From IMG/VR virus record IMGVR_UViG_3300046012_001130, positions 1 through 58,426 of that record: a stretch of 58,426 nucleotides of DNA; one strand, given 5' to 3'. The DNA is from a virus (taxonomy: Duplodnaviria > Caudoviricetes). The position numbers and the translations under genes are program-made. Below the pieces are notes generated by a model. That model ran no database searches, was not told where the DNA came from, and saw nothing but the letters and a program-made list of their open reading frames with translations. Positions 4,791 to 56,550 of this stretch are shown piece by piece (the stretch's first letter is position 1; each line of letters opens with the position of its first letter).

Positions 4791-4842
4791 GTGCATGGCG
4801 AACGTCGGACGACGTGCGCATTCCCTCAGATGGAGCCCAAAC

Positions 4843-10542: not shown

Positions 10543-10619
10543 TGTGGGGTGGAGCAGTCCGGTAGCTCGCCAGGCTCATAACCTGGAGGTCGCCAGTTCA
10601 AATCTGGCCCCCGCAACCA
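10543..10619 (+). tRNA. tRNA-Met(CAT), initiator (fMet)-like, CCA encoded
   Basis: Full cloverleaf TGTGGGG-TGGAGCAGTCCGGTAGCTCG-CCAGG-CTCATAA-CCTGG-AGGTC-GCCAG-TTCAAAT-CTGGC-CCCCGCA-ACCA; closely resembles bacterial tRNA-fMet. Confidence 0.95.
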
Positions 10620-18044: not shown

Positions 18045-21000
18045 ATGGTTTCGCTCGATCTCATCCGCAAAGTCACCGTGCAATATCAGTCGACCGGCGC
18101 CGAAAAGGCCGCCGCCGATTACGACAAGCTTACCTCAGCACAGGACAAGGCGGCCGCATCAGCGACACGCGTCGAGGCGACGACCGAAAAGCTGTCGCGC
18201 ACGCAATTGAGCGTGTCGGGCGCGACCGAACGTTATGTGCGGGCGATGGACCCTGCCGCCCGCGCGCAGGCGCAGGTTGAGCGCGGCGAGAGGCTGATGG
18301 CGGCGGCCCGCGCCCAGGGCTTGCCGATTACCGCCGCCATGAATAACGCGCTCGAACTCGCGCGCAAGCGGCACGAAGAATATTCGAAAGCAGCCGAGGC
18401 GAACACGCGCGCCATCGGCCTCAATCGCATGCAGATGATGGAATTCGGCCATGTGGCGCGAAGCGTCGCCGATTCCGTCGCGGCGGGCGCCAATCCATTG
18501 CGCGTGCTGAGCCAGGAAGGCGGCCGCGTCGCGCAAATTTTCACCGAAGGCCAGGGCGGCGTTGGCGGCACCTTCAAGGCGCTGACCAGCCAGGTCGGCC
18601 GGCTCGCCTTTTCCTGGGTCGGCCTCGGCCTCGCGGCGGCTGGCGCGAGCGCCATCGGCGCCGGCGCGGCTCTTTCCTGGGCCAGCGCGCAAAGCCGGCT
18701 GGCGGCCTCGCTGAACGGCGTCGGGCGCGCATCAGGGCTTAATCTCGCTGGGCTCAATAGCGCCGCTCGCGCGGCTGCGACGGCCGGCGGCCTTTCGACG
18801 CCTGAAGCCCGCACTCTGATGGCGGGTTTTGCCGGTACGGGGACGATCTCCGGGTCGTTGGGGCAAAGCCTTGCCGGTTCAAGCCGACGCTTCGGCGACA
18901 TAACCGGCCAGTCGACGGCCGATGCCGGTGCCATGCTCGCGAAGCTCTTTGCCGATCCGAGCGCCGGCGCCAAGGGATTGTCTAAAATATTCGGCGATCT
19001 CGACGCGCGGACGCTCGAGCTGATTCAATCGGAGCAGGCTAGGGGCGAAATCGTCGCCGCGCAGAAGACCTTACTCGACTCCTTTTCAGCGAGTCTGAAG
19101 GCGGCGACCGATAACACCTGGAAGTTGCAGGACTGGGCGCAGAACGCCAAAAACGCCGGCGCCAATTTCCTCGATCGGATCGGCGCCGGCATCGCCGAAT
19201 TGGTCGCGAAGCCGCCGCTGGCCGTGCAACAGACCGATATTCAAGCCCAGATCGGCGTTCTGAGCCGGGAGCGAGGGCAGGAGGGCAATGTCGCGCGGCT
19301 GCGCGCGCAATATGAGACGAACCAGCAGATCCTCGATAAGGAGGCGCAGCGGGCGCAGGCGGACGCTCGCCAGCAAGCTGCGACGCGGCTCGGCAATCAG
19401 GCGGCTGATGCGGTACGAGCGGCATTGCCGGATTTCGTCCGTGCCAATAGTCTTGCCGACCGCATCGGCCTGTTGCGCAACGCCGCCGGCAATAGCGATG
19501 CCATGCACGGGCTCGAAGGTTTTGATGTCAACGGCGCGCTGTCGCGCAGCCTCATGCAGCAGCGTAATCTCGATCCCGGCCGTCGTGCCGCGCAGGACGA
19601 TCTGCTTTCCATTCAAAATAGCCAGGCTCGCACGCTGGCGGAGAAAATTGCCGTCGATGCCGAAAAGGCGCGGCTTCAAGTGCTGCGCGATACGGGCGAT
19701 GCGTTGCAGGCGGCCGCCGCGGCGGAATCGGCTCGCAACGAACAGATCGCCGCCGCCAACCGTCAGGCCCAGGATGTGGTGAAACAATCGGGCCGCGATT
19801 TGCAAATGGCCGGAATGTCGCCCTATCAGCGGGGACGGCAAGAGATTGAGAATCGTTTTGCCGATTTGCGCGAGCAGTTGACGGCTTCGCCGACTCAACT
19901 CGCCAATGCGATGAGGCCGCAATTCTCCACCGATATCGACCGGCTCGGCGATGCGGCGACGCGGGCCGCCGATGCGCTCGACCGCATCGCTAATGACAAT
20001 TCGCCCTATGGATCGGTTCGGGCTCCCGGTTCTATCAGCGGCGGCGCGTCGGGGCCTTGGGGCTCCGTTCGCGCGCCGGGCTCGATCAGCGGAAATAATC
20101 CCGGCAACCTCGAAGTTTCAAGCTTCAGCGCGGGCCAGCCTGGCTTCATCGGCGGCGGCCGTTTCGCCAGTTTTGCGACACCGGCCGACGGCTACCGCGC
20201 CGCCAACAATCTGCTGACCTCCTATGTTCACCGTGGCTACCGGACGCCGGCTGCAATTATCAACCGCTGGGCCCCGCGCAGCGACGGCAATGATCCGGCG
20301 GCCTACGGCGCCTCGATCGCCAAGATCGCCGGCCTCGATCCGAATGCGACGCTTGGCTTCGACGCACAGTCGCGCTCTCGCCTGCTCTTTGCCATGACGA
20401 AGGTCGAACACGGCTCGTCGCCTTATGGCGAGAGCGCCATCGCCGGCATGTTGCAAGGCAAGGCGCCGGTCGGCCTCACCACCGCAGGAGCGGTCGCCAC
20501 GGCGCACAGCCAATCGGTCGCTGCCTATAATATCGAATCAATTCAACAGCCTTTCAAGCAATCCAATCAAGCGCTCAAGGATCAGAATCTGCTGCTCGAC
20601 GTGCAACAGAAGGCCTTCGGCAAATCGAAAGCTGAACTCGAAGGCCTGCTCGCGGCGCAAAAGCTTTATAATGACTTCACCGACGCCGGTGTGACGGTGA
20701 CGGCGGCCATGAACGAGCAGATCCAGGCTTACGGTGCCGGCGTCACGACGCTGAATCGGCGCCAGGAGCAAATGCAGAGGCAACAGGACGCCATGGGCGC
20801 GGTGCGCGATGTTGGATCTAGCTTTATCGACTCAGTCGCCCAAGGCCTCGCCACGAGGCACCGCAACGTCCACCAGACGATCTTCGGCAGCGCCATGCAT
20901 AGCGTCGGCACGAGCCTTCTCTCCTCCGGCGAGCGCGCTCTGACGGGCGCCTTGTTTGGCGGTGGTCGCGACGGCGGCAACGGCGTTCTAGGCAGCCTCT

Positions 21001-21425
21001 TCGCATCATTGTTCGGCGGCGTTGGCGGCGGCGGCGCGCCGATGCAGCTCCACTTCGCCGGCGGCGGTGTGATGACGTCGCGCGGTCCGCTCGCCTTGCG
21101 GCGCTATGCTGGCGGCGGGGTCGCCGATAGCCCTCAACTCGCCATGTTCGGCGAGGGTTCCGGGCCGGAAGCCTATGTGCCGCTGCCCGACGGGCGTTCG
21201 ATTCCGGTCAATATGCGTGGCCGTTCGGGGCCGGCTCAGCCCGGTCATACCTTCAATAGTTCGACAACGATCGTCATGAATGGCGGCGACGATCCGAAAC
21301 GCCAAGCCTCGCAGCTGCAGGCCGAGCTCGATCGGCGCGACGCAAAGCTCATGCAGAACGTGCAGCGGAATGTCGGGTCGATGCAATCAACCTGGAATCG
21401 CCGCTATGGCAAGGCCGCCGGCTGA
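18045..21425 (+). CDS. Tape measure protein with internal lysozyme-like domain
   Basis: 1126 aa Ala-rich helical ORF; NNPGNL...FATPADG...IINRWAP domain; C-terminal FAGGG/GEGSGPEAYVPL. Confidence 0.9.
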   Translation: MVSLDLIRKVTVQYQSTGAEKAAADYDKLTSAQDKAAASATRVEATTEKLSRTQLSVSGATERYVRAMDPAARAQAQVERGERLMAAARAQGLPITAAMNNALELARKRHEEYSKAAEANTRAIGLNRMQMMEFGHVARSVADSVAAGANPLRVLSQEGGRVAQIFTEGQGGVGGTFKALTSQVGRLAFSWVGLGLAAAGASAIGAGAALSWASAQSRLAASLNGVGRASGLNLAGLNSAARAAATAGGLSTPEARTLMAGFAGTGTISGSLGQSLAGSSRRFGDITGQSTADAGAMLAKLFADPSAGAKGLSKIFGDLDARTLELIQSEQARGEIVAAQKTLLDSFSASLKAATDNTWKLQDWAQNAKNAGANFLDRIGAGIAELVAKPPLAVQQTDIQAQIGVLSRERGQEGNVARLRAQYETNQQILDKEAQRAQADARQQAATRLGNQAADAVRAALPDFVRANSLADRIGLLRNAAGNSDAMHGLEGFDVNGALSRSLMQQRNLDPGRRAAQDDLLSIQNSQARTLAEKIAVDAEKARLQVLRDTGDALQAAAAAESARNEQIAAANRQAQDVVKQSGRDLQMAGMSPYQRGRQEIENRFADLREQLTASPTQLANAMRPQFSTDIDRLGDAATRAADALDRIANDNSPYGSVRAPGSISGGASGPWGSVRAPGSISGNNPGNLEVSSFSAGQPGFIGGGRFASFATPADGYRAANNLLTSYVHRGYRTPAAIINRWAPRSDGNDPAAYGASIAKIAGLDPNATLGFDAQSRSRLLFAMTKVEHGSSPYGESAIAGMLQGKAPVGLTTAGAVATAHSQSVAAYNIESIQQPFKQSNQALKDQNLLLDVQQKAFGKSKAELEGLLAAQKLYNDFTDAGVTVTAAMNEQIQAYGAGVTTLNRRQEQMQRQQDAMGAVRDVGSSFIDSVAQGLATRHRNVHQTIFGSAMHSVGTSLLSSGERALTGALFGGGRDGGNGVLGSLFASLFGGVGGGGAPMQLHFAGGGVMTSRGPLALRRYAGGGVADSPQLAMFGEGSGPEAYVPLPDGRSIPVNMRGRSGPAQPGHTFNSSTTIVMNGGDDPKRQASQLQAELDRRDAKLMQNVQRNVGSMQSTWNRRYGKAAG

Positions 21426-23493: not shown

Positions 23494-23904
23494 ATGCTGT
23501 CGCTGGAAGACTATCTCACCGTAGCCATCCATCGTCCATGGGCCTGGGGTGCCGTGGATTGCTGTTTCTGGGCGGGCGACTGGATCATGGCGGCAACCGG
23601 CCGCGACCCGCTAGCGCCCTACCGCGGCACGTATGACAGCGCGCTCGGCGCTGCCCGGCTGATCAAGGGCCGCGGCGGTCTCGTCGAAATGGTCGGCGCT
23701 GAAATGCAGAATCTTGGTTTCGAGCCCACGGTCGATTGTTCGGACGGCGACATCGCAGCCATCGCCTATCCCGCCGGCGACGAGCGTCATCGCGCCGCCG
23801 ATGTGTCGGTAGTCATTCGACGCGGTCCTTGGTGGCTCGCGCGCGCCTTGAACGGCTGCATCGGACTAGAGGCAACGCCATTGCAGTGCTGGAAGATTTT
23901 ATGA
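23494..23904 (+). CDS. NlpC/P60-like (DUF6950-type) tail tip protein
   Basis: WAWGAVDCCFWAGDWI...TGRDP...RGTY motif. Confidence 0.8.
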   Translation: MLSLEDYLTVAIHRPWAWGAVDCCFWAGDWIMAATGRDPLAPYRGTYDSALGAARLIKGRGGLVEMVGAEMQNLGFEPTVDCSDGDIAAIAYPAGDERHRAADVSVVIRRGPWWLARALNGCIGLEATPLQCWKIL

Positions 23905-26372
23905 GCCTGCACGAATGGCTGGGCGATCCGATTTTCACACCGCTGTTCACGGCGGCTATCGCGGCGGCAGGCGGAACGGCGTCGGTGGCCATCGGCGGCA
24001 TTACCATCAATATTGCAGCGGTTTTGAGCGCAGTTACCGTGACCGCCATCGGCATCGGCCTGGTGCTCTTGTTCTCGCCACGACCGAAGCCCGAGTCAGG
24101 CGCCATCCCCGTCCAGCAGACCACGCCCTACCGCATTTTCGCTTACGGCGTCGTGCGCATGTCCGGCGCCGTCATGCTGAAGGAGAACGCCAACGGGCCG
24201 CTGAATTACGTGGCGGCGCTTTGCGCCCACCGTATCTCGCGGTTCAACCAGCTCTATATGAACGACGATCTCGTCACCATTGCCTTCGATAGTTTCAACC
24301 GGCAGTTCGCCGGGAACATCGGTGCGGGCTTCGACGGCCGCTACGCCGGCGATGTCGGCATTCAATGCCGCCTGGGGCGGACGCCGGAGGTGCCCTACAG
24401 CCTCACCTCGAACCTGTGGGGAACGAGCTATCGCGGCGACGGCATATCTTCGATCGCCATGGTCTGCACGCAGCCGACACAGGCGAATTTTACCAAAATA
24501 TTCCCCTTTTCTGGGCCCGCTCCGAGCGTGGTCATTCGCAGCGCGCGGCTATTCGATCCGCGGCCGCCCGAACAGCATGTCGACGATCCGGAGTCCTGGG
24601 CATTCAGCCAGAACGTCGCGCTGGCGATCCTGCATCATCAATGTTTCTCGGATTTCGGGGCAGGGCGGAATTACCAGACGGCCGTCCTGCCGGTGCTCGA
24701 TTACTGGATCCAGGCGGCGAACGATTGTGACGACTTCATGCCGGTTCGGGGCGGCGGTTCGGAGCGACGTTACGAACTCGGTTTCTTCGGCACGACCGAG
24801 CAGGACCAGAAGACCACCCTGCAAACGATGTTGAACGCCTGCGACGGGCATTTCGTCGAGCGCGGCGACGGCACCATCATCCTGCGGGTCGGAAAGTATG
24901 TCGAGCCAACCGTCGTCATCAGCGATGCCGATATCATCGGGTTTCAGATTCAATCGGCGATAGCCTCCGAAGACGCGATCAACCAGGCCTCGGCGAAATA
25001 TTCATCGCCGGACGCTGGATTTGTCACCGTCGAAACGGACCCCGTGATCAACTTCGCCGACCAGGCCGCGCGTCCGGGCGCGCCGCATGTCGCGCAATTC
25101 GATCTCGGCGCCGTGCAATCGACAGGGCAAGCTTCACGGCTCCTCAATCGTGAGATGATACGGCAGGCGGAACAGATCCGGGGCAAGCTGTGGCTGCGGC
25201 TCTCAGGGCTGAATTGCGCCTATGAGCGCTTCGTGAAAATCAACTCGAACACGGTTCCCTATCTGGCGGACACGGCGGTCGAAATCCGCAGGGCCGTCAT
25301 CAGCCTGCAAAGCGGCACCGTCGAAATCGATTTCCTCGGCACCGGGCCTTCGATCGACACGTTCGACCCGGGCGTCGACGGCAGCACACCGCCCTATGTG
25401 CCGCGCCGCTCCGTCGAGCTCGGGTTGCCGACGCCGGGCAGGGTCAGGGTTATCCCGAGTCTAGACTCCAACGGTGGTGTGTTTTTCGGCGTGTCGTGGG
25501 ACGATATGCCGTCCGATCTTGGCTACTCGAGCTATACTTGGACGATGCAATGGCGCGTCCCCGATGTCGGCGGCGGCGTTCCGGGCTCATGGGGCTCGGC
25601 CACTTTCATCTCGCCAACTTCCGTCAATCAGCGCTTCATCGAGGCTATTCCGCCCAATGAGGTCGACGCCGGGTTCGATTACGAAGTTCAGGTTTTTTCC
25701 GTCGCCAGCGGGGACTCCCTTTCGACGTCGAACATCTTTCAAAAAGTCGGCACCAAGCCCGAGGCTTGCGCGCCGGCCCGTCCGACAGGGCTTGCCTGCG
25801 CCGTGCTCGCCCCCGGCCTTGTGCAGGCGACAGGCAACCAGTCCACATCGCCAAATGCGGCCTTCGTCCGATTGTTTCGCAGCGCGGCCGGTGATTCCTT
25901 CGATATGGCCGTGCCATGCGGACCGATGTTCCGCGTCGCGGTCGGAAGCTTTTTCACGACGAATGACAACCCGCCGGGCGGCCACTTTTCCTATTGGCTC
26001 GCGAGTTATGCGGAGAACGGCGTTGGATCGGATTCGCTCGCGCCGGTCGATGTCTTTGCGCCCGACCCGTCCTATCCGGCGCCGACCGGCCTGACCGCGG
26101 CGGGATCGACCGACGGTTCGGGGGGCTCGCCGCTCACCGTGGTCGCACCGAACGCGACCGACATTTATGTCGTGCAGTTCTACGTGGTCGCGTCGGGCGG
26201 AGGATTTGCCGCCGCGGTTCCTGTCGGCCCGCAGCTTGGCGCGTTGCCAGGCGAGACGATCGGCTATGCCGACACCCAGGCGCTGGGCGACTGGGATTAT
26301 TACGCGACGGCGTTCAGCCGAACGCTCGCCGAATCGGCACCTGAGGGGCCTGTCTCGGTGACTCTCTCCTAA
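23901..26372 (+). CDS. Central tail fibre/host-specificity (J-like) protein with FN3-like C-terminal repeats
   Basis: AYGVVRMSG, LFDPR, SQNVAL and LNACDG motifs; repeated PxPTGL starts. Confidence 0.85.
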   Translation: MSLHEWLGDPIFTPLFTAAIAAAGGTASVAIGGITINIAAVLSAVTVTAIGIGLVLLFSPRPKPESGAIPVQQTTPYRIFAYGVVRMSGAVMLKENANGPLNYVAALCAHRISRFNQLYMNDDLVTIAFDSFNRQFAGNIGAGFDGRYAGDVGIQCRLGRTPEVPYSLTSNLWGTSYRGDGISSIAMVCTQPTQANFTKIFPFSGPAPSVVIRSARLFDPRPPEQHVDDPESWAFSQNVALAILHHQCFSDFGAGRNYQTAVLPVLDYWIQAANDCDDFMPVRGGGSERRYELGFFGTTEQDQKTTLQTMLNACDGHFVERGDGTIILRVGKYVEPTVVISDADIIGFQIQSAIASEDAINQASAKYSSPDAGFVTVETDPVINFADQAARPGAPHVAQFDLGAVQSTGQASRLLNREMIRQAEQIRGKLWLRLSGLNCAYERFVKINSNTVPYLADTAVEIRRAVISLQSGTVEIDFLGTGPSIDTFDPGVDGSTPPYVPRRSVELGLPTPGRVRVIPSLDSNGGVFFGVSWDDMPSDLGYSSYTWTMQWRVPDVGGGVPGSWGSATFISPTSVNQRFIEAIPPNEVDAGFDYEVQVFSVASGDSLSTSNIFQKVGTKPEACAPARPTGLACAVLAPGLVQATGNQSTSPNAAFVRLFRSAAGDSFDMAVPCGPMFRVAVGSFFTTNDNPPGGHFSYWLASYAENGVGSDSLAPVDVFAPDPSYPAPTGLTAAGSTDGSGGSPLTVVAPNATDIYVVQFYVVASGGGFAAAVPVGPQLGALPGETIGYADTQALGDWDYYATAFSRTLAESAPEGPVSVTLS

Positions 26373-32252: not shown

Positions 32253-32283
32253 AGCTTCGCCGGCATCCCACAGATGCCGGCGG

Positions 32284-32352
32284 AGATGCCCTCCTTGGGC
32301 GTTTCCTCCCTAGACTTGGGCCCCTGGCGCTTCGGCGCTGGGGGCTCTTTTT
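32284..32352 (+). ncRNA. MmgR/suhB (alpha-r8)-family small RNA
   Basis: Short hairpin, signature TTTCCTCCCT (32302-32311) followed by AGACTTGGGCC, then a terminator with T5. Confidence 0.75.
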
Positions 32353-32413
32353 GCGTTTTAGGGCCGCCGCTAATATGCTCGCTCCGCCCCTTCGGGGGGA
32401 AGACCCCACAGAG

Positions 32414-32447
32414 CCCGTTGGAGAGCCCCCTTTCCAGCGGGTTTTTT
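32414..32447 (+). terminator. Rho-independent terminator
   Basis: CCCGTTGGA/TCCAGCGGG stem followed by T6. Confidence 0.6.
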
Positions 32448-32501
32448 ATGGTTGGAACTTCGCGCGCTTCCGCCCGGTTGAGTCGGACCGGAGGCGTTGC
32501 C

Positions 32502-33506
32502 GTGCGTGCCAGTAAACGAGTTTTCGAGCCGTCGAGGCGGAGCGCGCGTGTTCCCGAGCCGCCGCGGTGGATCGAGCCGCAGCTTTCCCGGCTTGTCGAG
32601 ACCATTCCCGCTGGCGACGGCTGGGCCCATGAGGTCAAATTCGACGGCTATCGCATGATGGCGCGTCTCTTCGGCGGCGAAGCGTTGCTGCTGACCCGCA
32701 GCGGTCTCGACTGGACCGCGAAATATCCTGGCATCGCCGCCGCGCTGCGCTCGCTGAAGCTGCGGCAGGCCTATCTCGATGGCGAGCTTTGCGCCATCAG
32801 GCCGGACGGCACGACCTCCTTCGCCGACATGCAGGCGGCTGCGGAAGGCAAGGCGCGCCTCGTCTATTTCGCCTTCGACCTGCTGCATCTCGACGGCCTC
32901 GACCTCATGCCGCTGCCGCTGCTCGAGCGGAAAGCCCTGCTCGAGCGATTGCTCGCCGGCGGGCCGGCCGCGATCCGCTACAGCTCGCACCACGTCGGCG
33001 ACGGCCCGAAGCTCTACGCCGCGGGAGCAGCCCAGGGCATTGAGGGGCTGCTGTCGAAGCAGATCGACAAGCCCTATGCGCCGGGCAATCGCGGGCTATG
33101 GGTGAAGACGAAGTTCCTCAACCGGCAGGAGTTCGTCATCGTTGGCTGGTCAGAGCCGGAGGGCTCGCGCGAGGCGCTGGGCTCGCTGCTGCTCGGCTAT
33201 TACGCGGACGACGGCCGGTTGCTCTACGCCGGCCGGGCCGGTACCGGCATGTCGAACGTCGTGCTGCGCGGGCTCATGCGGAAGCTGAAGCCGCTCGAGC
33301 AAAAGAAGATGACGGTCGACGAGCCGCCGCCGAAGACAAGCCATTTCGGCCGGCCGCTCGAGCTCGCGCGCGTCCATTGGGTGAAGCCGAAACTGGTCGC
33401 GGAAGTGACCTATCTGACCTGGACAACGGACGGTCTTCTGCGGCACGTCGTTTTCGAGGGGCTGCGCGACGACAAGCCGGCCCAACAGGTTCGGCGCCAG
33501 GGTTGA
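32502..33506 (+). CDS. ATP-dependent DNA ligase (LigD ligase domain)
   Basis: HEVKFDGYR, LDGEL, FDLL, EGLLSK, WVKTK and LRHVVFEGLRDDK motifs; GGAGG RBS with GTG start. Confidence 0.93.
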   Translation: MRASKRVFEPSRRSARVPEPPRWIEPQLSRLVETIPAGDGWAHEVKFDGYRMMARLFGGEALLLTRSGLDWTAKYPGIAAALRSLKLRQAYLDGELCAIRPDGTTSFADMQAAAEGKARLVYFAFDLLHLDGLDLMPLPLLERKALLERLLAGGPAAIRYSSHHVGDGPKLYAAGAAQGIEGLLSKQIDKPYAPGNRGLWVKTKFLNRQEFVIVGWSEPEGSREALGSLLLGYYADDGRLLYAGRAGTGMSNVVLRGLMRKLKPLEQKKMTVDEPPPKTSHFGRPLELARVHWVKPKLVAEVTYLTWTTDGLLRHVVFEGLRDDKPAQQVRRQG

Positions 33507-40571: not shown

Positions 40572-41119
40572 GCGTGCCCCATCGGGGGCCTGTGGATTGG
40601 ATCGGTCTCGAGTTTGCGGAAATGCGCTGTCATTGCGAGAATGCGCTGCCAGACGGTTTCGAGATCGGCCTGATCGTCGGCGCGGCTTAGGACTTCGGCC
40701 ATTATCTGGACCAGCGCCTCGACGGCGGCCTCGGATTCCTCCTGGCCAACAGGGCCGCCGCGGTCGATTGCGGCATCGCCATAAAGTGCGCGAGCGACAC
40801 GGCAGGTGATGCATGTGCAAGGAACCGCGGGTGCCTCGCCGCCGGCCTTGGCATCCTTGCCGCGCCGGCGCTCGAAGATTGTCGAGACCGTTTGATGGGC
40901 GAATGCCTCGGCGGCGGAATCCTCGGGAGTCTTTCCGCTAACGGCCCCGAAGGCGCCGGCGGCCTTGAAGATGCACGTGAGCGCGGCGGTAAAAACGACG
41001 GCGAGATAATCCTCGGTGCTGCGCCCGAGCTGCGAGACAGAGTCCACTGCCTTCGAAACGCGCTCCTCGACGAGACGCGATAGGTCGATCATCACGTGGT
41101 CGGCGAGTTTTTCGCTCAT
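40568..41119 (-). CDS. Hypothetical protein
   Basis: Coupled ORF; contains CTCITC. Confidence 0.55.
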   Translation of the reverse strand: MSEKLADHVMIDLSRLVEERVSKAVDSVSQLGRSTEDYLAVVFTAALTCIFKAAGAFGAVSGKTPEDSAAEAFAHQTVSTIFERRRGKDAKAGGEAPAVPCTCITCRVARALYGDAAIDRGGPVGQEESEAAVEALVQIMAEVLSRADDQADLETVWQRILAMTAHFRKLETDPIHRPPMGHA

Positions 41120-43011
41120 TCCGCGGCCTCGCTGGCGGCGAGAATTGCTTCGTCGGCCTCGATTGCATCGAGCATGGCCTCGGCGAGCGTTGGGCCGGGG
41201 GCCGCTGCGACAGGGGCCTCGGGGCCGGCCGGCAGATCAGCCCAGCGAGCGAAGGGCTGTGGCAGCCATTGGCGATCGCGGGCGAGCGTCGCGGCCGCCT
41301 CGGCCGCTGCTTCGCGCTTCAGCTTCTTTGCGGCGATGCCGGCGGCCTGGCCGTCCATCGCCTCGATGGCGGCCACGGAGGCCGCCTTGGCGGCAAGGCC
41401 AAAATAAAGGCTTGGGTCGAAGTGCTGGAGCAGATCGGCGCCGAGCGCACCGGCGCGGGCCTGGATCCCGGCAGCGAGCGGATCGATCTCGCTCATCGAT
41501 GTCGCGCCGGCCGGATAGATCGAGGCGGCGATCAATTCTCCGAAGGCCGCAACGAGATCGACGAGCGGCACCGCGCCTGTGATCGCCAGGGCGGTCTTGA
41601 ACCGGTAAGGGCGCATCGAAAAAAGGCGCGCGAGCAATTCGTTGCTTGTGCCGGAAAGATCGGTCTGCGTGGAATCGAGGAGCACGAAGCCGCGGGAATC
41701 ATAGTCCCTCTTGACGAGCGCGGCGATCGCGATCGCCAGTGCGATGTCAGGACGCGCCATGATGGCGCTGCGGAAGGCCTTGGTGGCGACCTCGTCGAGC
41801 ATCTGGCGGAGGTTTTTGCCGGGCTCTTCGGGGGCCTCCGGCTCCGCCTTCGGCGTTTTGCCAGAGCTGGTTGGGGCGCTGACGCGGTCCCCGATATCGC
41901 CCGCAGGCTCGCGCGAAACGAAGGCCGCCTTGCGTTGCAGGCCGCGCTCGATCGAGAGGCGGCCGTCCTGGATGGTGGCGCAGATGCCGAGGATGGCGCG
42001 CGCCGTCTGCGGTATGGCCCGCAAGATTGCTTTGGCCTCGATTACATCCAGCCGCGCGTCGATCGCGGCGGCGCGTGCGTCATCATCGTTGTCTTCCGCT
42101 TCGGCGCGGAGGGTGGCGCGCTCGCTGTCCTCGTCTTCGAGATAATCCGGTTCGAATTGCGATTGTTGATAATCGCGCCGCTCGGCCTGCGGCACGACAA
42201 AGCCCCAGCCTTCCTCGAAAGCCGCATCGCCAGCTTCACGCGCTAGCTTTTCGAGTGCGAGCTTTTTGGCAAGCGTGCCGTCGAGCCAGACGATCTCTTC
42301 GGCAAAGAGCGAATCCTCGATACGACCACCGGCGGCGAGATAATCGGCATCGCCGACGTAGAGCGCCTCGTCGTCATTCGCCGCGATCCAATCGGCGATC
42401 AGCGCCTTGCGTACTGAATAGTCTGCGTTTTGGAGGTTCCTGGCCTTCAGCGAGTCAAACACGGCGATCTGCGCTTCGTGCGTCTCGCCGGTCGCATAGG
42501 CTTCGGCCGCTTCGGCGTCGATGACGCCGGCGCGCCAGGCTGCGCGCAGCGCCGGCGCCAGGCGCGCGAGTTTGAGGGCGCGACGGACGCGTCTCGGTGT
42601 GGTGCCGAAGGCGGTGGCGATCGCCGCAATATCGCGGCCCGATGCCTCGAGATCCGCGAAGGCCTCATATTCGGCGACGGGATGCAAATCGGCCCGCATG
42701 ACATTCAGCGCCAGCGCCGTCTCGCGCATGACGTCCTCGGCGCCGTCGGCGCAGATCTCGATCGGCACGCGGCGGCTGCCATCGGGAGAGAGCTGCCGCA
42801 GCGCCAGGTAACGGCGGCGACCGTCGAGCACGCGATAACCCTCGCCGGTCATCTCCTCGCAGAGCAGCGGCTGCAGCAGGCCGGAAGCCCCGATCGAGGC
42901 GGCGAGCGCGTCGATGCCGTCATCGGCCGGCTCGCCGAAGCGCGGATTATAAGGCGAGATGCCCTCGATGGCGGAGAGCGCGACGGTGGCGCGGACCGGA
43001 TTCAGCATCAT
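41116..43011 (-). CDS. ParB/Srx-family protein with HTH
   Basis: NPR, LAASI...GLLQPL, DGRRRY and HPVAEYEAF motifs followed by an HTH. Confidence 0.85.
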   Translation of the reverse strand: MMLNPVRATVALSAIEGISPYNPRFGEPADDGIDALAASIGASGLLQPLLCEEMTGEGYRVLDGRRRYLALRQLSPDGSRRVPIEICADGAEDVMRETALALNVMRADLHPVAEYEAFADLEASGRDIAAIATAFGTTPRRVRRALKLARLAPALRAAWRAGVIDAEAAEAYATGETHEAQIAVFDSLKARNLQNADYSVRKALIADWIAANDDEALYVGDADYLAAGGRIEDSLFAEEIVWLDGTLAKKLALEKLAREAGDAAFEEGWGFVVPQAERRDYQQSQFEPDYLEDEDSERATLRAEAEDNDDDARAAAIDARLDVIEAKAILRAIPQTARAILGICATIQDGRLSIERGLQRKAAFVSREPAGDIGDRVSAPTSSGKTPKAEPEAPEEPGKNLRQMLDEVATKAFRSAIMARPDIALAIAIAALVKRDYDSRGFVLLDSTQTDLSGTSNELLARLFSMRPYRFKTALAITGAVPLVDLVAAFGELIAASIYPAGATSMSEIDPLAAGIQARAGALGADLLQHFDPSLYFGLAAKAASVAAIEAMDGQAAGIAAKKLKREAAAEAAATLARDRQWLPQPFARWADLPAGPEAPVAAAPGPTLAEAMLDAIEADEAILAASEAAE

Positions 43012-48347: not shown

Positions 48348-48390
48348 CGCTTCGTGCGGGAGTTATGCAGATTCTATGCGGGCCTTTGCG

Positions 48391-49029
48391 ATGAGCTATC
48401 GCGACCTGCCGGCGCCGCTTCGCAATGCCAATCGCATTCATGACATCCTGCTGCATGCGCGGGAGGTGGCGTTCGATTATGTCGATCCGGTGCATCTTTA
48501 TCTGCATTCGCGCGGTATCGATCTGACGAAGGCGCGTTTGAATCGGGGCGTGCTGCTGTCGCATCCGCGGCTCGGCAATTGGGCGGCGCGCGGCATCACG
48601 TCGCCGGCGATGATCCTCGTCGCGCAGGGCGCCGAGACGCGGACACTCGATGTCACCTTTCTGACCGAGGCCGGCGGCCTGGCGCCCATCTTTCCGCGGC
48701 TGAGGCTCGGGGCTTTCGACGGCCATGTCGCGCATCTGGCTGGCGCTGCCGGCGAACCCGATCTTGCCCTCCTGGCGCAATCGGGCGAGGGCGCCTTGCG
48801 GGCGATCGCCGCCGGCTTTCCAGGCCATGTGCTCTGCGCGGTGGCGCTCGGCAATATGGCGCGCATACGGCTGCCGGAAGGCGTCAGCCGGCTGCATCTT
48901 TATTTCGAGCGCGATGCGCTGAGTTCGGGCCGCGAAGCTGTCGTCGCCAGTTTCACGGCGCGCGGCTACCAGGTGCTTGAATGGACCGATCCGGTCCGTG
49001 TCGCGCCGGCCGGCGAGGTGGCGCCGTGA
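48391..49029 (+). CDS. Degenerate primase/Toprim-like protein
   Basis: YLHSRGI, PAM, TFL, GEG and IRLPEGV layout mirrors the primase at 51363 but lacks acidic Toprim motifs. Confidence 0.5.
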   Translation: MSYRDLPAPLRNANRIHDILLHAREVAFDYVDPVHLYLHSRGIDLTKARLNRGVLLSHPRLGNWAARGITSPAMILVAQGAETRTLDVTFLTEAGGLAPIFPRLRLGAFDGHVAHLAGAAGEPDLALLAQSGEGALRAIAAGFPGHVLCAVALGNMARIRLPEGVSRLHLYFERDALSSGREAVVASFTARGYQVLEWTDPVRVAPAGEVAP

Positions 49030-51019: not shown

Positions 51020-51366
51020 TCTCGAGCCATACGCCGCCGGGAACGAAGGTGCTCTATCGGCCGGACGGGGACCCGAGCGCCGATGATTTCGCCATCGCCG
51101 CCGAGTTACCCGCTCTATCGGAGGGCGGCCATTATACGCTGCATCGGATCGTCGAATGCGATGACATGTCCTTCGGCGTCGCCCTGCTCGAAACCGCCGC
51201 CGCCCAGGGAAAGCCGGTGCCGGTGACGCTGAACGGCAAGAAGTGGTCAGCATTCCTGTTTTATCGTTTGGAGGATTTCGTGCCGGCGGCGCTGCCGCAA
51301 TGCCTGACCGAGCTGCTCGATGTGGCGCCCGTCGATGCCGAGCGCGGCGTGTCGGAGCCCGCATGA
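51016..51366 (+). CDS. Hypothetical protein
   Basis: ATGA coupling on both sides. Confidence 0.55.
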   Translation: MISSHTPPGTKVLYRPDGDPSADDFAIAAELPALSEGGHYTLHRIVECDDMSFGVALLETAAAQGKPVPVTLNGKKWSAFLFYRLEDFVPAALPQCLTELLDVAPVDAERGVSEPA

Positions 51367-52598
51367 ACCGGCGTGCCGAACAAAAACATTCCGACGCCTT
51401 CGAGGCCTGGATCGAGGAGGCGCGGAAGGTCACGGTCACGGCCTATCTGCAAAAGCGCGGGCATTGGGACAAGAAGATGATCGGCGACGCCGGCGTCCCT
51501 TGCCCGGGCTGCGGCGGCACCGATCGCTTCGCGGTGAACACGCGCAAGAATGTCTTTTTCTGTCGGGCGTCAGGCGCGGCGGGCGATGCCATCGCGGCGG
51601 CCGAGCATATATTCGGCCTGCCGTTTCTCGACGCGGTCGAAGATGTCGCCGGCCTGCCGCCGCCTGAGCGCGAAGCCCGAGAGAGCGCGGCCGATCGCGA
51701 CAGCAGGGTCGCACGGCTCGCGCGGCAGCAGGCGGAAGCGGCGGAAAAGCAGAAGATCGACGCGGCCGAGGCCAACCATTATCGCGACCGTGAGCGACGC
51801 GAGGGCTTCCGGCTTTGGCAACAGGCGCTGCCGATATCGGGCACACCGGTCGAGGAATATCTGGCGCTGCGCCGGCTCGCCGCGCCTGGCTCGGCGCATC
51901 TGCGCTACATGCCGTCGGCGCGCTATTGGCACAAGCCGCCGCCGGATGGCGCCTGCCTGCATGTCGGCCCGGCGATGGCGGCGGCGATCGTCGGGCCGCA
52001 CGGGCGATTCATCGGGCTGCATCGCACCTGGATCGATCTCGCGCAGCCGAAGGGCAAGCTCGTGCCTGTCGATCCGGAGACCGGCGAAATATTGAAGGCA
52101 AAGAAGACGCGCGGCTCCTGGAAGGGTGGCTCGATCCTTGTGGCGCGGGCGGAGGGCCCGCCGGAGTTTTTCGTCGCCGGCGAAGGCATCGAGACCGTGC
52201 TCGGCTTTCGCGCCATGATGCTTCTCGACGATCCCGGCTTCGTAGCGCGGGCCGAATTCCGCGCGGCGGTGTCGCTCGATAATCTCGGCGGCAAGGCGGC
52301 CGGCCGCGTCGCCCATCCGACCGAGACCAAGGTCGATCGCCGCGGCCGCGTCCGGCATGTGCTGATCGGCTCCGACGAGCCCGAGCCGTTCGACGATCTG
52401 CCGCTGATCCGCGTGCCCGGGTGCGTCGAAGAGATCGTGCTGCTGCGCGACGGCGACAGCGAGCCGGCGCGCACGTCCAACGCCATGACGCGGGCGGCGA
52501 AGCGCTTCCATGCGGCCTATCCTCATTGCGGCGTCAAGATCGTCGCGGCGGCCGAAGGCGAGGATTTTGGCGACAGCTGGATCAGGAGGGCGGCGTGA
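51363..52598 (+). CDS. DNA primase (Zn finger plus Toprim)
   Basis: PCPGCGGTDRF, FFCR, HRTW, GEGIET, DGD and GEDF motifs. Confidence 0.85.
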   Translation: MNRRAEQKHSDAFEAWIEEARKVTVTAYLQKRGHWDKKMIGDAGVPCPGCGGTDRFAVNTRKNVFFCRASGAAGDAIAAAEHIFGLPFLDAVEDVAGLPPPEREARESAADRDSRVARLARQQAEAAEKQKIDAAEANHYRDRERREGFRLWQQALPISGTPVEEYLALRRLAAPGSAHLRYMPSARYWHKPPPDGACLHVGPAMAAAIVGPHGRFIGLHRTWIDLAQPKGKLVPVDPETGEILKAKKTRGSWKGGSILVARAEGPPEFFVAGEGIETVLGFRAMMLLDDPGFVARAEFRAAVSLDNLGGKAAGRVAHPTETKVDRRGRVRHVLIGSDEPEPFDDLPLIRVPGCVEEIVLLRDGDSEPARTSNAMTRAAKRFHAAYPHCGVKIVAAAEGEDFGDSWIRRAA

Positions 52599-53329
52599 TG
52601 AATGTGCAGACGGCGATGAGCGCGGCATTCGAGCGGGTGGGTATGGACGGGTCGGGCGAGCGGCTGTTCGCGGCGGCGGCGAAGGCGCTGCGTGGTGAAG
52701 TGCAGCCGCACCGCGCCCTGGCGCCGTTTCTGGCGGCGCTGGAGCGCGATCGCGGAGCGCTGCGGGCGCTGGCGCTCGGCTATCTCGAAGAACGGGCCGC
52801 GGATATGCGCGGCGACGAATTGCGCGGGGGCGGCCAGAATACGAGTGCTCGAAAGGGCCAGAGCATCAGTGCCGCGCCCGCGCAAGACGATGAAAATCAG
52901 AGTTCGCGCGACGGGGGACCTGAAGGGTTTGCCCCAGAGGGCCATGTGACAAGTGCCCCCGTCGCGTGTCCGAACGAGGAAGTCGGCGGCCAGGGGATTT
53001 GTGCCACCTACGCGGCCGGGAAAACCATGCCGCCGCCTTCCTCACCGCGCCGCACCGGCACGCCGCGGCCGCTCGCCGTCATGTCAAGCGTGCAGGCCGT
53101 CATCGGCCGCTCGCTGTTCGACACCCACAGGCTTCGCGACGGCCGCGCCATCGGCGATATCCTCTGGCGCGACCTGCTGGCGCTGGCTGGTCGCGACGAA
53201 AAAGAAGCGGCGCTGCTGCGCGCCATCGCCGGCCACGTCGCCAATGCGCCGGCCGCCGCGCTGGTGCGCGAAGTCGTGTCGGAGAAGGTGGTCGCGGCGG
53301 CGATCGCCGCGGCCGAGGCGGTATCATGA
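52598..53329 (+). CDS. Hypothetical protein whose central linker is encoded by three TIGR-like units
   Basis: AGGAGG RBS; coupled on both sides; helical N- and C-domains with a low-complexity linker. Confidence 0.65.
   Translation: MNVQTAMSAAFERVGMDGSGERLFAAAAKALRGEVQPHRALAPFLAALERDRGALRALALGYLEERAADMRGDELRGGGQNTSARKGQSISAAPAQDDENQSSRDGGPEGFAPEGHVTSAPVACPNEEVGGQGICATYAAGKTMPPPSSPRRTGTPRPLAVMSSVQAVIGRSLFDTHRLRDGRAIGDILWRDLLALAGRDEKEAALLRAIAGHVANAPAAALVREVVSEKVVAAAIAAAEAVS
52820..53043 (+). ncRNA. Stem-loop TIGR-like guide array, units 1-3
   Basis: Three hairpins (52820-52885, 52905-52968, 52976-53043), each stem-CCA-N9-TG-small hairpin-CCA-N9-TG-stem; one box is ACC and one CCG. Confidence 0.8.
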
Positions 53330-54189
53330 ATCGCGACGCGCTCGCCGCGGTCTGCCTGCAGCTGATGGAGCTGCAAAGCGCCCGCAAACATTATATCGGC
53401 CTCGCCAACAAGCTCACCAATGCGCAGCAGGCGCGCATCCGCCGGGCGCTGGGCTGGCGGCCCGACGGCGGCGAAGCATCCAGGAAGGCGATCAATCAGC
53501 GCGCGTCGCACGTCATGCAGGCGGTGCGGATGCGCGATTCGAAACAGGCCAAGCCGCCGAAAGAAGAGGACGCGCCGATCATTGCGGCGCTGCGCGAAGA
53601 AATCGTCGTCACCCTGCAAAGCCTGGAGCCGAGCGCGAAGGCGCGTGCGGCGGTCGAGAAGGAAATGGCGCGGCTGGCGCGGACGCTGCCGGCCTATGCG
53701 TGGGTAAAGGGCGTGCGCGGCTTCGGCGATCTCGGCTTCGCCGTCACTATCGGAGAATGTGGCGATCTGCTGCTTTATTCGACGCCCGACAAAGTGTGGA
53801 AGCGCTGCGGCCTGGCGCCGTATGACGGCAAGGCCTATTCGAGCTGGCGGCGCGAGGGTGGCCTGACGAAGGAGCAATGGACCGATGCCGGCTACAAGCC
53901 GGGGCGGCGGGCGGAGATTCACGCCTGCGTCACCGAGAGCCTGCTGAAGCTGCAAAAGCCCGGCATGGCCTATCGCGACATCTATGATCTCAGGCGAGCG
54001 AACCGCGCCGTCAACCGGCCGGAATGGTCGAAGGGGCATTCGCATTTCGATGCGATGCGGGTGATGACGAAGATGCTGCTTTCCGACCTCTGGTCGGAAT
54101 GGCGGAGGGCCGCGATTATTGTGCCCGAAGGGGCCATGCATGCCGTGCCCTCCGCCGAGATTCACGCGGCGGCGGAGGCCCGCGCATGA
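53326..54189 (+). CDS. TasA-like Nop-domain protein (IS110 Tnp20-related, no RuvC/HNH)
   Basis: Coiled coil, then VKGVRGFGDLGFAVTIGECGDLLLYSTPDKVWKRCGLAP, YRDIYDLRR and HSHFDAMRVMTKMLLSDLW; no DEDD domain and no QSG serine motif. Confidence 0.8.
   Translation: MNRDALAAVCLQLMELQSARKHYIGLANKLTNAQQARIRRALGWRPDGGEASRKAINQRASHVMQAVRMRDSKQAKPPKEEDAPIIAALREEIVVTLQSLEPSAKARAAVEKEMARLARTLPAYAWVKGVRGFGDLGFAVTIGECGDLLLYSTPDKVWKRCGLAPYDGKAYSSWRREGGLTKEQWTDAGYKPGRRAEIHACVTESLLKLQKPGMAYRDIYDLRRANRAVNRPEWSKGHSHFDAMRVMTKMLLSDLWSEWRRAAIIVPEGAMHAVPSAEIHAAAEARA
54101..54156 (+). ncRNA. Stem-loop TIGR-like unit 4 inside the 3' end of the tas gene
   Basis: GGCGGAGGG-CCG-cgattattg-TG-CCCGAAGGGG-CCA-tgcatgccg-TG-CCCTCCGCC. 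Confidence 0.8.
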
Positions 54190-54491
54190 CCGCTCCCGCG
54201 CCGACCCTTCTGATCCGCATCCGGCTGCTAAGGGATCGCCGCAGCGACCTGCTGCTGGCCGGCAGCGGCGATCTGCCGGGCCTGCATGTGCATGCTTATT
54301 CTCCGGCTGAAATCGACATAAAGCTGCCGGCGGCGATCCGGGAGCTCCTGGAATTGCGCGGCGCGACGATCGACCGGATCGACACGGCCGATGCCGATGC
54401 GAAGGGCTTCGTCATGTGGCCCTCGACCTATCGCGTGAGTTGTATCGAAATGCCGGTTTCGGGGACTTTCGGACGGGAAACGGACGCGTGA
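54186..54491 (+). CDS. HicB/DUF1902-like protein
   Basis: SGDLPGLHVHAYSPAEI..KLPAAIRELL; ATGA-coupled to tas. Confidence 0.55.
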   Translation: MTAPAPTLLIRIRLLRDRRSDLLLAGSGDLPGLHVHAYSPAEIDIKLPAAIRELLELRGATIDRIDTADADAKGFVMWPSTYRVSCIEMPVSGTFGRETDA

Positions 54492-54745
54492 TCCTCGAAC
54501 CGCGAATCAATGTGGTGCCGCGGCCTCTTCGCGCGCCATCCCAGAAGCTGCATCGCAATCCGCTGCTGCAGAAACGGCGTTATCGCATGCCGCGCTGGTG
54601 GCCTTGGCGGGATCGACAAAGTGCGACGGCTCTCAGGGCCGAGATCGGCAAGGCGGTGCCCGGCCGCTTTCGACATCGCTCGGAGCCTGCTTTTCTGACG
54701 GCGTCAGCAAAGATGCCGGTGCCCGACCTCATGGCGACCGCATGA
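54488..54745 (+). CDS. Hypothetical basic protein
   Basis: GTGA and ATGA coupling on both sides. Confidence 0.4.
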   Translation: MILEPRINVVPRPLRAPSQKLHRNPLLQKRRYRMPRWWPWRDRQSATALRAEIGKAVPGRFRHRSEPAFLTASAKMPVPDLMATA

Positions 54746-56550
54746 CAGTGCCGCTCGACGAGCCCGAATCCCCTCGTATCGGCGCGACGATTGTCGCTTT
54801 TCCGCGTGGAACCCGCCCGTTGCCCGCGCCGGCCGAGCCGCGAAGCGGCGAAGATGAGCCATCTTCCCAGACGGGAGGATCGCGGCCTTCGGGAGACGAC
54901 AAGCCGCCGGGCGCGCACGACGGCGGCCGGGGACGCGGGCGGCGCGGCGGCGGCGACTCCGACGATGGCGACGATGCGGCGGATCTCAACCGGAGACTGG
55001 CGCTGCTGCCGCTCACCGATCTCGGCAACGCCGAACGTTTCGCGGCGCGCAACGAAGGCCGCTTTCTCTATTGCCCGGCGCTCGGCTGGCTCTGGTGGGA
55101 CGGTCGGCGCTGGTCGCGCGTCGGCGCCGAAGAGGCGGTGAAGCGGGCCGAACACGAGACGATCCGCGCCATTCAGGATGAGGCCAAGGCGCTGCGCGAT
55201 TCCGAACAGGATGTCGAGCTGAAGGAAGAGGTGAAGCGGCTGAAGGACGGCGCGGTGATGACGCCGGCTATCTGGCTCTCCGACCTCGTCGCGCGACACG
55301 GCCGCGCCTCGGAATCGGCGCAGCGCCTCGGCTCGGTGTCGAAACGCGCCGCCGCCATGCTGGCGATCGACGTTGCCGATCTCGACGCCGATCCGTGGCG
55401 CATCAACGTGCTGAACGGAACGCTGGTCGTTAAAAAAACGATTATCGAGTTGGCCGACGGGCACCCTGTCGAGCGCCCTGTGGATGCCGATTACATCACG
55501 CTGGTGCCGCACGCGCCGGAGCATCGCATCACCAAGCTCGCGCCGGTGATCTTCGATCCGGCCGCCGATTATCCGTTGTTCAAAGCCTTCCTCGATCGCG
55601 TGCAGCCACCGGATTCAAAAGGCGAGCGGCGGATGCAGAAATTTCTGGCGCAATGGGCGGGCTATGCGCTGACCGGTTCGATCGCCGAACAGAAGATGAC
55701 GTTTCATTACGGGAAAGGCCGCAACGGCAAGGGCGTCTGGGTCAATGCGCTGTCGCATGTCGCCGGCGACTATGCCGATGCGATCCCGATCGAGAGCTTC
55801 ATGGATTCGGGCCGGGCGCGGGCCGGCGGCCAGGCGACGCCCGATATCGCCGGCGTCGTCGGCGTGCGGTTTCTGACGACCTCCGAGCCAAAGAAGAATG
55901 CCGTCCTCGACGATGCCTTCATCAAGCTCTTCACCGGTGGCGACAAGATCAAGGCGCGCTTTCTGAACCGCGATTATTTCGGCTTCGTGCCAGTCGCCAA
56001 GCTGACCATGCAGGGCAATTACCGGCCGAAGGCGCCGACCGACGAGGGGTTGTGGAGCCGGCTGCTGCTGGTGCCCTGGGGCGTCTTCATCCCGCCGGAG
56101 GAGCGCGACCAGCAGCTCGGCGACAAGCTGCGCGCCGAGGCTTCCGGCATCCTGAATTGGATGCTCGACGGGCTGCGCTCCTGGCTCGACGAAGGGCTGA
56201 AGCTGCCGGACGAAGTCTCCAAGGCGACGGAGGACTATCGCAGCGACAGTGATCCGCTCGGCCGCTTCCTCGGCGTCTGCACGATGCAGGACATCGGCCA
56301 TCGCGTGCAGGCGAGCGACATGCACGCACTGTTCATCGCCTGGGCGAAAGCCAATGGCGAAAGCGAGTGGAGCATGAAGGGGCTCGCGGCCGCGCTGAAA
56401 GAGCGAGGCATCGCCTCGATCAAGAGCTCGTCGACCTTCTGGCTGGACCTGAAGCTGACGAAGCACGTGCATGATTTCGTCGATTACGAGGGCAAGCCGA
56501 TCCGCATGCGGGACGAATCGGACGGCGCGAGTTTTGAGGAGCTTCCGTGA
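54742..56550 (+). CDS. P4/D5-family SF3 helicase (primase-helicase C-terminal part)
   Basis: TDLGNAERF, INVLNG, Walker A GKGRNGKG, TGGDKIKARFL and SDPLGRFL motifs. Confidence 0.92.
   Translation: MTVPLDEPESPRIGATIVAFPRGTRPLPAPAEPRSGEDEPSSQTGGSRPSGDDKPPGAHDGGRGRGRRGGGDSDDGDDAADLNRRLALLPLTDLGNAERFAARNEGRFLYCPALGWLWWDGRRWSRVGAEEAVKRAEHETIRAIQDEAKALRDSEQDVELKEEVKRLKDGAVMTPAIWLSDLVARHGRASESAQRLGSVSKRAAAMLAIDVADLDADPWRINVLNGTLVVKKTIIELADGHPVERPVDADYITLVPHAPEHRITKLAPVIFDPAADYPLFKAFLDRVQPPDSKGERRMQKFLAQWAGYALTGSIAEQKMTFHYGKGRNGKGVWVNALSHVAGDYADAIPIESFMDSGRARAGGQATPDIAGVVGVRFLTTSEPKKNAVLDDAFIKLFTGGDKIKARFLNRDYFGFVPVAKLTMQGNYRPKAPTDEGLWSRLLLVPWGVFIPPEERDQQLGDKLRAEASGILNWMLDGLRSWLDEGLKLPDEVSKATEDYRSDSDPLGRFLGVCTMQDIGHRVQASDMHALFIAWAKANGESEWSMKGLAAALKERGIASIKSSSTFWLDLKLTKHVHDFVDYEGKPIRMRDESDGASFEELP

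Follow-up and report, generated by a model that had tools for sequence, protein, structure and literature searches.

Candidate TIGR-TasA guide hairpins within the coding sequence of a conserved gene upstream of tasA in a tailed-phage contig

Systems of the TIGR-Tas type (TIGR, tandem interspaced guide RNA) were first described in 2025 (Faure et al., 2025, PMC12045711). In the nomenclature of that study the array motif CCA is box C and UG is box D, and the stem-loop class of TIGR arrays is made up of hairpins, each with two spacers of 8-12 nucleotides (nt) and with palindromic stems that vary. The subject here is a stretch of viral DNA of 58,426 nt (Duplodnaviria; Caudoviricetes; IMG/VR record IMGVR_UViG_3300046012_001130), called the window below, whose gene content over positions 1-58426 is that of a tailed phage or prophage. 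Its replication module probably holds a stem-loop TIGR-TasA system with four dual-spacer guide units (U1-U4), three of them in the linker of a protein-coding gene, called ORFX here, and one in the tail of the tasA gene that follows it.

The locus resembles the stem-loop TIGR-TasA system of a Peromyscus leucopus gut contig (PlTasA; Faure et al., 2025, PMC12045711; Guan et al., 2026, preprint) in having a nuclease-less, Nop-domain Tas protein and tandem hairpins. It is also like PlTasA-type arrays in that box C (CCA) and box D (UG) stand on either side of each spacer, and in that variable palindromic stems take the place of edge repeats. Unlike the PlTasA system as it is described in those texts, where the array lies beside tas and forms intergenic sub-arrays, three of the four units here are in frame inside a conserved gene other than tas; the loops of the window units also differ, being 10-12 nt long and forming a 3-base-pair (bp) stem with a tetraloop.

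Units inside a coding sequence are themselves not new. Xu et al. (2026, bioRxiv 10.64898/2026.09.09.750476) describe units that lie within tas, in frame and in disordered regions, both in BlTasA and in a survey with TIGRFinder, and U4, which sits at the 3′ end of tasA, is a case of precisely this kind. The intragenic tigRNAs (TIGR guide RNAs) of their main text are in tas only, while the host of U1-U3 is a separate, conserved two-domain gene family. The initial annotation of this DNA, which was made from the sequence alone, had held that scans limited to intergenic DNA would miss such arrays; this is only partly apt: coding DNA is within the scope of the published TIGRFinder, which has already turned up units in tas (Xu et al., 2026). 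Guide units in a conserved non-tas gene were not found in the main texts of Xu et al. (2026) and Faure et al. (2025).

A further parallel is with the tasParB-tasA operons, in which a conserved accessory gene likewise shares an operon with tasA, and dual-repeat arrays lie upstream of, downstream of or between the two genes (Faure et al., 2025, PMC12045711). ORFX, unlike tasParB, has no similarity to ParB, and the tasParB arrays are of the dual-repeat kind and are not described in that paper as lying inside the partner's coding sequence. The stem-loop TIGR-TasA type and units within tas are already known; what looks new here is the conserved non-tas host gene, and the hosting of guide units by such a gene family appears to be unreported.

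Eukaryotic box C/D small nucleolar RNAs (snoRNAs) are also guides with a box C/D architecture, bound by a Nop-domain protein and hosted in genes; they are usually intronic, which keeps the guide clear of coding sequence. The bacterial dual-function RNAs SgrS/SgrT and RNAIII/hld have a peptide-coding open reading frame (ORF) that is for the most part distinct from the base-pairing region. As with snoRNA host genes, SgrS and RNAIII, one transcription unit is predicted here to yield a protein together with an RNA that guides or regulates; unlike in all of these, the guide hairpins are themselves codons.

The hairpin units and tasA

The features of the ORFX-tasA region, in window positions, are:

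52584-52589, + strand, AGGAGG ribosome-binding site, 8 nt 5′ of the ORFX ATG
52598-53329, + strand, ORFX, 243 amino acids (aa); ATG at 52598, TGA at 53327-53329
52613-52810, + strand, N-terminal four-helix domain of ORFX (N-domain), residues 6-71, model confidence (pLDDT) about 90
52829-53053, + strand, disordered linker of ORFX, residues 78-152, pLDDT about 40; coextensive with the array
52820-52885, + strand, unit 1 (U1): 5′ arm 52820-52833, box C 52834-36, spacer A 52837-45, box D 52846-47, loop 52848-57, box C′ 52858-60, spacer B 52861-69, box D′ 52870-71, 3′ arm 52872-85
52908-52965, + strand, unit 2 (U2): 10-bp stem, first box C 52918-20 (non-consensus), spacer A 52921-29, TG, 10-nt loop, CCA 52942-44, spacer B 52945-53, TG
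52976-53043, + strand, unit 3 (U3): 14-nt arms, CCA 52990-92, spacer A 52993-53001, TG, 12-nt loop, CCG 53016-18, spacer B 53019-27, TG
53069-53323, + strand, conserved C-terminal domain of ORFX (C-domain), residues 158-242, pLDDT about 95
53326-54189, + strand, tasA, 287 aa, with sequence and fold matches to TasR/TasH
54100-54157, + strand, unit 4 (U4), in the 3′ end of tasA (about residues 259-277, in the tail, where model confidence is low): CCG 54110-12, spacer A 54113-21, TG, 10-nt loop, CCA 54134-36, spacer B 54137-45, TG

Three hairpin units lie at 52820-53043 (+ strand) inside ORFX, and a pattern search gave a fourth at 54100-54157; U2 was identified by eye and by folding, having been missed by automatic scans. 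The layout throughout is a stem, a CCA-like box C, a 9-nt spacer, box D (TG), a loop of 10-12 nt, a second box C, spacer and box D, and the closing stem. U1 shows no deviation in any box (CCA-N9-TG, 10-nt loop, CCA-N9-TG), and its loop is a 3-bp stem with GAAA; the first box C of U2 reads ACC, or CCT if the spacer is taken as 8 nt. Box D is TG at all eight positions of U1-U4. Loop lengths are 10, 10, 12 and 10 nt, with the loops of U1, U2 and U4 themselves forming a 3-bp stem and tetraloop, and the stems, of 10-14 bp, have four distinct sequences; an inverted-repeat search gave arms of 15 nt, 93% complementary, for U1 and U3. U1-U3 span 224 nt and finish 283 nt 5′ of the tas start, U4 is within tas, and all four are on the + strand. 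The window thus has two spacers of ~9 nt per unit, box C/D flanks, palindromic stems that differ between units, and tandem units on the tas strand, as in stem-loop TIGR arrays (with box C taken as CCA or a one-base variant, box D as TG or CG, no more than 15 nt between the intervals, and a stem of 5 bp or longer).

A stricter definition (TG at both box D positions, no more than one mismatch in box C, spacers of 9 nt, and a stem no shorter than 10) was used for comparison with chance. It gives 3 units in the window, all on the + strand and within 1.4 kb, against a mean of 0.033 and a maximum of 1 in 300 dinucleotide shuffles of the whole window. U1-U4 also fold as hairpins better than 200/200 shuffles, with z from -3.3 to -4.5 (U2, z -3.76). 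Since the opposite strand folds about equally well, the strand of the units is taken from the orientation of the CCA...TG boxes. An Rfam scan produced just a chance-level microRNA match (E 0.82) and no RNA family for the units. Tandem Repeats Finder detected no array in the window, as would be expected for units that have just 5 fixed bases per interval in common. A permissive TIGRFinder box set (CGA/CG allowed, stem at least 5) was set aside as too unspecific, with dozens of matches on both strands of this 64% GC (guanine plus cytosine) window. Separately, a 19-nt inverted repeat, 79% complementary, joins 54139-54157 (the 3′ arm of U4) and 54170-54188, a stretch that runs across the tasA stop and the ATG after it; this repeat may be a rival structure to the U4 hairpin, or a terminator-like element.

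The presence of a tas gene downstream of ORFX, proposed in the initial annotation, is borne out by both sequence and fold. The product of 53326-54189 matches the solved TasR chain 9MTY (phmmer, E 5.1e-6), which is the TasR of Faure et al. (2025, PMC12045711), and phrog_4285 (E 2.6e-18); it has no Pfam match, and no Pfam nuclease appears even at E<=10. Its AlphaFold2 model (35 homologues; pLDDT 92.5) is essentially all-helical and without a beta-sheet domain, with long helices at 3-41, 50-68 and 80-118 (coiled coil) and a C-terminal domain that is likewise helical; the C-terminal tail, where confidence is low, is the part that corresponds to U4. In a Foldseek search of the PDB, ranks 1-10 are all TasR or TasH chains (prob 1.00, TM up to 0.56/0.66), and IS110-family recombinases come after these. 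From the sequence matches and the model, this gene is of the TasA type, with a Nop-type C-terminal domain; the TasA assignment is made because the product has no RuvC, HNH or other nuclease domain.

ORFX and its relatives

U1-U3 sit in frame in the ORFX linker, which they cross without a stop as the peptides GGGQNTSARKGQSISAAP / DGGPEGFAPEGHVTSAPV / GGQGICATYAAGKTMPPP. The initial annotation had described these units as a translated pseudo-repeat linker between two domains, and both parts of this description hold: there are three hairpins, the translation is as given there, and an AlphaFold2 model of ORFX (29 homologues) has folded N- and C-terminal domains flanking the disordered residues 78-152. 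The strong ribosome-binding site and the coupling to a primase gene upstream and tas downstream, also proposed there, are likewise found in the sequence. AGGAGG precedes the ATG at a distance of 8 nt, the stop of the primase-like gene (52596-52598) shares 1 nt with that ATG, and the ORFX stop and the tasA ATG (53326) overlap as ATGA.

The two domains have the GC periodicity expected for coding DNA in a 64% GC genome (0.82/0.52/0.82 by codon position for residues 1-77; 0.78/0.53/0.87 for residues 153-243). The linker is flat, at 0.68/0.64/0.67, without periodicity. A profile of the C-domain searched against 1.84 billion representative proteins found 724 clusters at E<=1e-3, with 392 at E<=1e-10. 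In the best 150 of these 724 rows the domain is within a few residues of the C-terminus, with one exception (P0093), and the proteins are 80-367 aa long; no longer (fused) proteins with the C-domain were found, though this is weak evidence. The density of G[QH] dipeptides, a soft proxy for units that is read from proteins alone, is 2.52 per 100 aa in the linkers of 137 family proteins, vs 0.81 and 0.13 in the domains. Comparison of ORFX with the Atlas gave no feature match, and its structure rows were all under the bar for naming.

Related loci were taken from around tas homologues, with a Tas alignment as the query (168 loci, with the window 169 sequences, of which 146 are unique; designated by L numbers below), and ORFX was located in them by tblastn of both of its domains in the tas flanks. 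Many of these tas relatives are on viral contigs, of 8-116 kb. In 45 of the 146 unique loci the C-domain sits directly upstream of tas and shares its strand; in 0 is it on the opposite strand. Both domains were detected in 26 loci, and in 26/26 they have a common frame and form a single open frame. The linkers of these 26 are 90-369 nt long, every length being a multiple of 3; they contain 0 stops in the coding frame, vs 29 and 62 in the other two, and are stop-free in 26/26 loci in the coding frame, vs 11/26 and 6/26 in the others. A contig end truncates three of the 45 C-domain frames, and each of the remaining 42 has 190 codons or more, so that there is no locus among these with a C-domain alone behind a stop. 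Openness is not an automatic property of the units, since in the same Tas clade 43 of 67 upstream arrays in loci without ORFX have no open frame at all. The arrays vary in length, and selection holds the ORFX frame open through them. The homologues therefore behave as had been anticipated from the window alone: the flanking domains are conserved, the number of units varies, indels are in frame, and spacers avoid stop codons.

The units have a preferred register in these frames: of 82 embedded units, 68 have a box C that starts on a third codon position, and Gly-Gln/His recurs as a result. Four-nt loops that start with A (ACAC type, as in L006 and L007) would, were the first box C read as a codon, put a TGA in frame.

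Across the 146 unique loci, a relaxed detector found 831 units on the tas strand vs 119 on the opposite one. The 831 cluster within 1 kb upstream of tas, inside tas, and within 500 nt downstream. About 82 units are embedded in ORFX frames, in 38 of the 45 loci, vs 10 antisense in the same frames; the ORFX homologues of L001, L003, L004, L008 and L002 likewise hold units in their linkers. Arrays of the same kind are also found in non-coding DNA: in L005-L007 (Meridianimarinicoccus and two Thermoguttaceae contigs) they are upstream of a homologous tas, on the tas strand, and read CCA-N9-TG, 4-nt loop, CCA-N9-TG. Loop length in the clade is bimodal, with 4 nt in 500/831 units and 8-10 nt in 219/831. 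The window units belong to the long-loop class; such loops are often CCGACAAGG, which accounts for a recurrent Ala-Asp-Lys-Ala in ORFX linkers.

The initial annotation had also named retention of the CCA/TG boxes in homologues as a test of its reading, and the boxes are kept while spacers change. This is seen in two paralogous ORFX-tas loci of one Pannonibacter tanglangensis assembly (L001:4193-5840 and L003:4193-5840), which are 94% identical. The two diverge in twelve 9-nt blocks, each set between a box C and a box D: identity in these spacer blocks is 40/108 (37%), vs 1358/1450 (93.7%) elsewhere (Fisher p 7e-46). Stems, boxes and loops are nearly unchanged, and both ORFs remain open. This pattern points to cassette-like turnover of spacers rather than point mutation. 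The same replacement is seen at the protein level between L015 and L017 and between L003 and L093. Spacer variability is read here from related loci, the window locus itself having no close relative. The replaced spacers of L001 and L003 look unrelated, with no obvious base-specific bias, and the third allele, L093, has other spacers again.

A unit at the 3′ end of tas, in the same position as U4, is found in L001, L003 and L008; L001 and L003 have one stem sequence in common there, with different spacers. Many tas homologues (e.g., P0006, P0013, P0026) also have N-terminal extensions of 40-170 aa that consist of these same pseudo-repeat peptides. The extensions of L001, L003 and L004 are units embedded at the 5′ end of tas (L001:4815-5834, L004:1382-2350), and one locus can hold units in ORFX, at the tas 5′ end and at the tas 3′ end.

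Readings of the embedded array

By analogy with published TIGR work, the transcript of the primase-ORFX-tasA operon would fold into the unit hairpins, a TasA dimer would bind the box C/D pairs, and host RNases would trim the stems to give tigRNAs of roughly 55-65 nt. The resulting ribonucleoprotein would bind DNA, with spacers A and B pairing with opposite strands of a ~18-bp site, and a TasA complex that lacks a nuclease would presumably block transcription or replication of its target. Because the hairpins are codons, any one transcript could either be translated through the linker or be cut into guides. Guide maturation would lower ORFX synthesis, and also translation of tasA if this is coupled through the ATGA overlap. 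As an idea of our own, embedding may shield the array RNA from Rho-dependent polarity.

The reading that we favour, and hold to be likely, is that U1-U4 are genes for dual-spacer tigRNAs, three of them written in frame into the ORFX linker and one into the tail of tasA. Within this favoured reading the linker peptide would be mainly a by-product of RNA constraints. A bolder reading, which is less likely than not, is that ORFX is a dedicated host gene of phage TIGR-TasA systems. Its linker would serve as a tolerated landing pad for the storage, exchange and expression of guides, and competition between translation and maturation would link guide load, ORFX dose and, by way of the ATGA coupling, TasA dose in a feedback. 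The interpretation first proposed, that the same nucleotides serve as mRNA and as guide precursor, is partly supported by these comparisons. For its further suggestion that the host ORF may be a dedicated partner of the system, what was found is the association of the two genes as neighbours, in 45 of 146 loci.

It seems unlikely that the units are real tigRNA genes while ORFX is not made as one polypeptide, its frame being open for some other reason. Transit of ribosomes might, for example, keep Rho-dependent termination or decay from acting on the array transcript, allowing tasA and the genes after it to be transcribed, or only the C-domain might be made, from an in-frame ATG at 53081, just past U3. 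The linker does have the features of an unselected peptide, being without codon-position GC periodicity and predicted to be disordered; but the N- and C-domains are both conserved, in one frame in 26/26 loci, the count of in-frame stops is 0 vs 29 and 62, and an open frame implies reading by ribosomes, which would itself yield the full-length protein. That the units in ORFX are decaying remnants overgrown by a gene and no longer used as guides, with only U4 or none functional, seems more doubtful still. U2 and U3 each have one non-consensus box C and are possibly weak or decaying, no target was found in the contig, and the window has four units only, vs 5-11 in many relatives. Yet the 10-14 bp stems are intact in U1-U4, each of which has TG at both box D positions, variants of box C occur commonly in the clade (CCG in 101 and CCT in 47 of 831 first boxes), and the complete exchange of spacers between embedded units of L001 and L003, with boxes and stems kept, indicates ongoing use.

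A coincidental resemblance, in which the repeats are a Gly/Pro/Ala-rich linker maintained at the protein level, or generic GC-rich hairpins (repetitive extragenic palindrome-like elements or terminators) that happen to carry CCA and TG, is strongly disfavoured and very improbable. Both strands fold equally well, and high-GC DNA of this kind is rich in inverted repeats (93 pairs in 2 kb). Against these stand the chance expectation of 0.033 units per window where 3 were observed, the identical unit design of the non-coding arrays beside homologous tas genes (L005-L007), the strand bias of 831 vs 119, the confinement of L001/L003 variation to 9-nt spacers, the identity of the neighbouring gene as one for a Tas protein, and the lack of an Rfam family.

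Several observations weigh against the favoured reading of U1-U4 as guides written into ORFX and tasA, in addition to the imperfect boxes of U2 and U3. ORFX is present in just 45 of the 146 loci of this Tas clade, and Tas therefore does not need it. What an open frame would attest, judged from sequence, is selection against stops and not translation as such. The ORFX domains have no match in Pfam or PHROG, among PDB sequences, or among PDB or BFVD folds. The relaxed detector is noisy, with an antisense background of about 14% (119 vs 831), and in the window it gave 3 likely false units and missed U2. A search of public sequencing runs for this DNA found one DNA run, probably the source sample, and none recorded as RNA. 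Targets were sought with spacer A followed by the reverse complement of spacer B, a geometry derived from the reported 8-nt 3′ overhangs, and also with the alternative geometry: the four spacer pairs have no site with three or fewer mismatches in the 58-kb contig in either tandem geometry. Five contig sites were found at 4 mismatches, in line with chance, and for 822 units of the related loci, local matches with at most 2 mismatches numbered 6, vs 32 in a swapped-spacer control, which is no excess.

Returning to ORFX as the host of a guide array, the family suggests that guide hairpins can be stored in the coding sequence of a second conserved gene that selection keeps readable. In phage TasA systems of the alphaproteobacterial type, ORFX is a candidate accessory gene, and any coupling of translation to guide maturation has a natural test case in the ORFX-tas loci. 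With pairs of near-identical elements whose spacers have all been swapped, TIGR spacer turnover becomes directly testable; if ORFX is indeed a dedicated host, its family may be the best natural material for learning how TIGR spacers are replaced. There is also a warning for annotation: such genes will resemble proteins with hypervariable linkers, and the linkers themselves will resemble protein repeats.

The surrounding contig

The other annotated features of the window are:

615-2417, terminase large subunit
2347-3729, portal
4795-6339, major head protein
10543-10619, + strand, tRNA-Met, CAT anticodon, among the structural genes; its sequence runs on into a CCA-containing 3′ end
15747-17219, minor tail protein
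18045-21425, tape measure
23736-26372, tail fibre
32274-33506, ATP-dependent DNA ligase
41116-43011, - strand, ParB-like gene
48376-49029, + strand, short DUF7146 gene, 217 aa
49783-50664, ParB-like gene, not adjacent to ORFX-tasA
51243-52598, + strand, primase-like gene, DUF7146 and CHC2/primase zinc ribbon
54186-54491, + strand, putative ORF of 101 aa without a family, with its ATG in an ATGA overlap with the tasA stop
54598-56550, + strand, D5_N / P4-type primase-helicase gene

The primase-like gene upstream of ORFX matches Pfam PF23639 (E 5.4e-21) and phrog_510, ‘DNA primase’ (E 2.7e-53). On the other side, the primase-helicase gene (Pfam PF08706, E 7.6e-24; phrog_1156, E 5.8e-106) closes the replication-module context of the TIGR-TasA locus. 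The two DUF7146 genes (48376-49029, and 51243-52598, whose product is a full primase-like protein) are 2 kb apart, and with the D5_N gene they make three primase-related genes in 8 kb.

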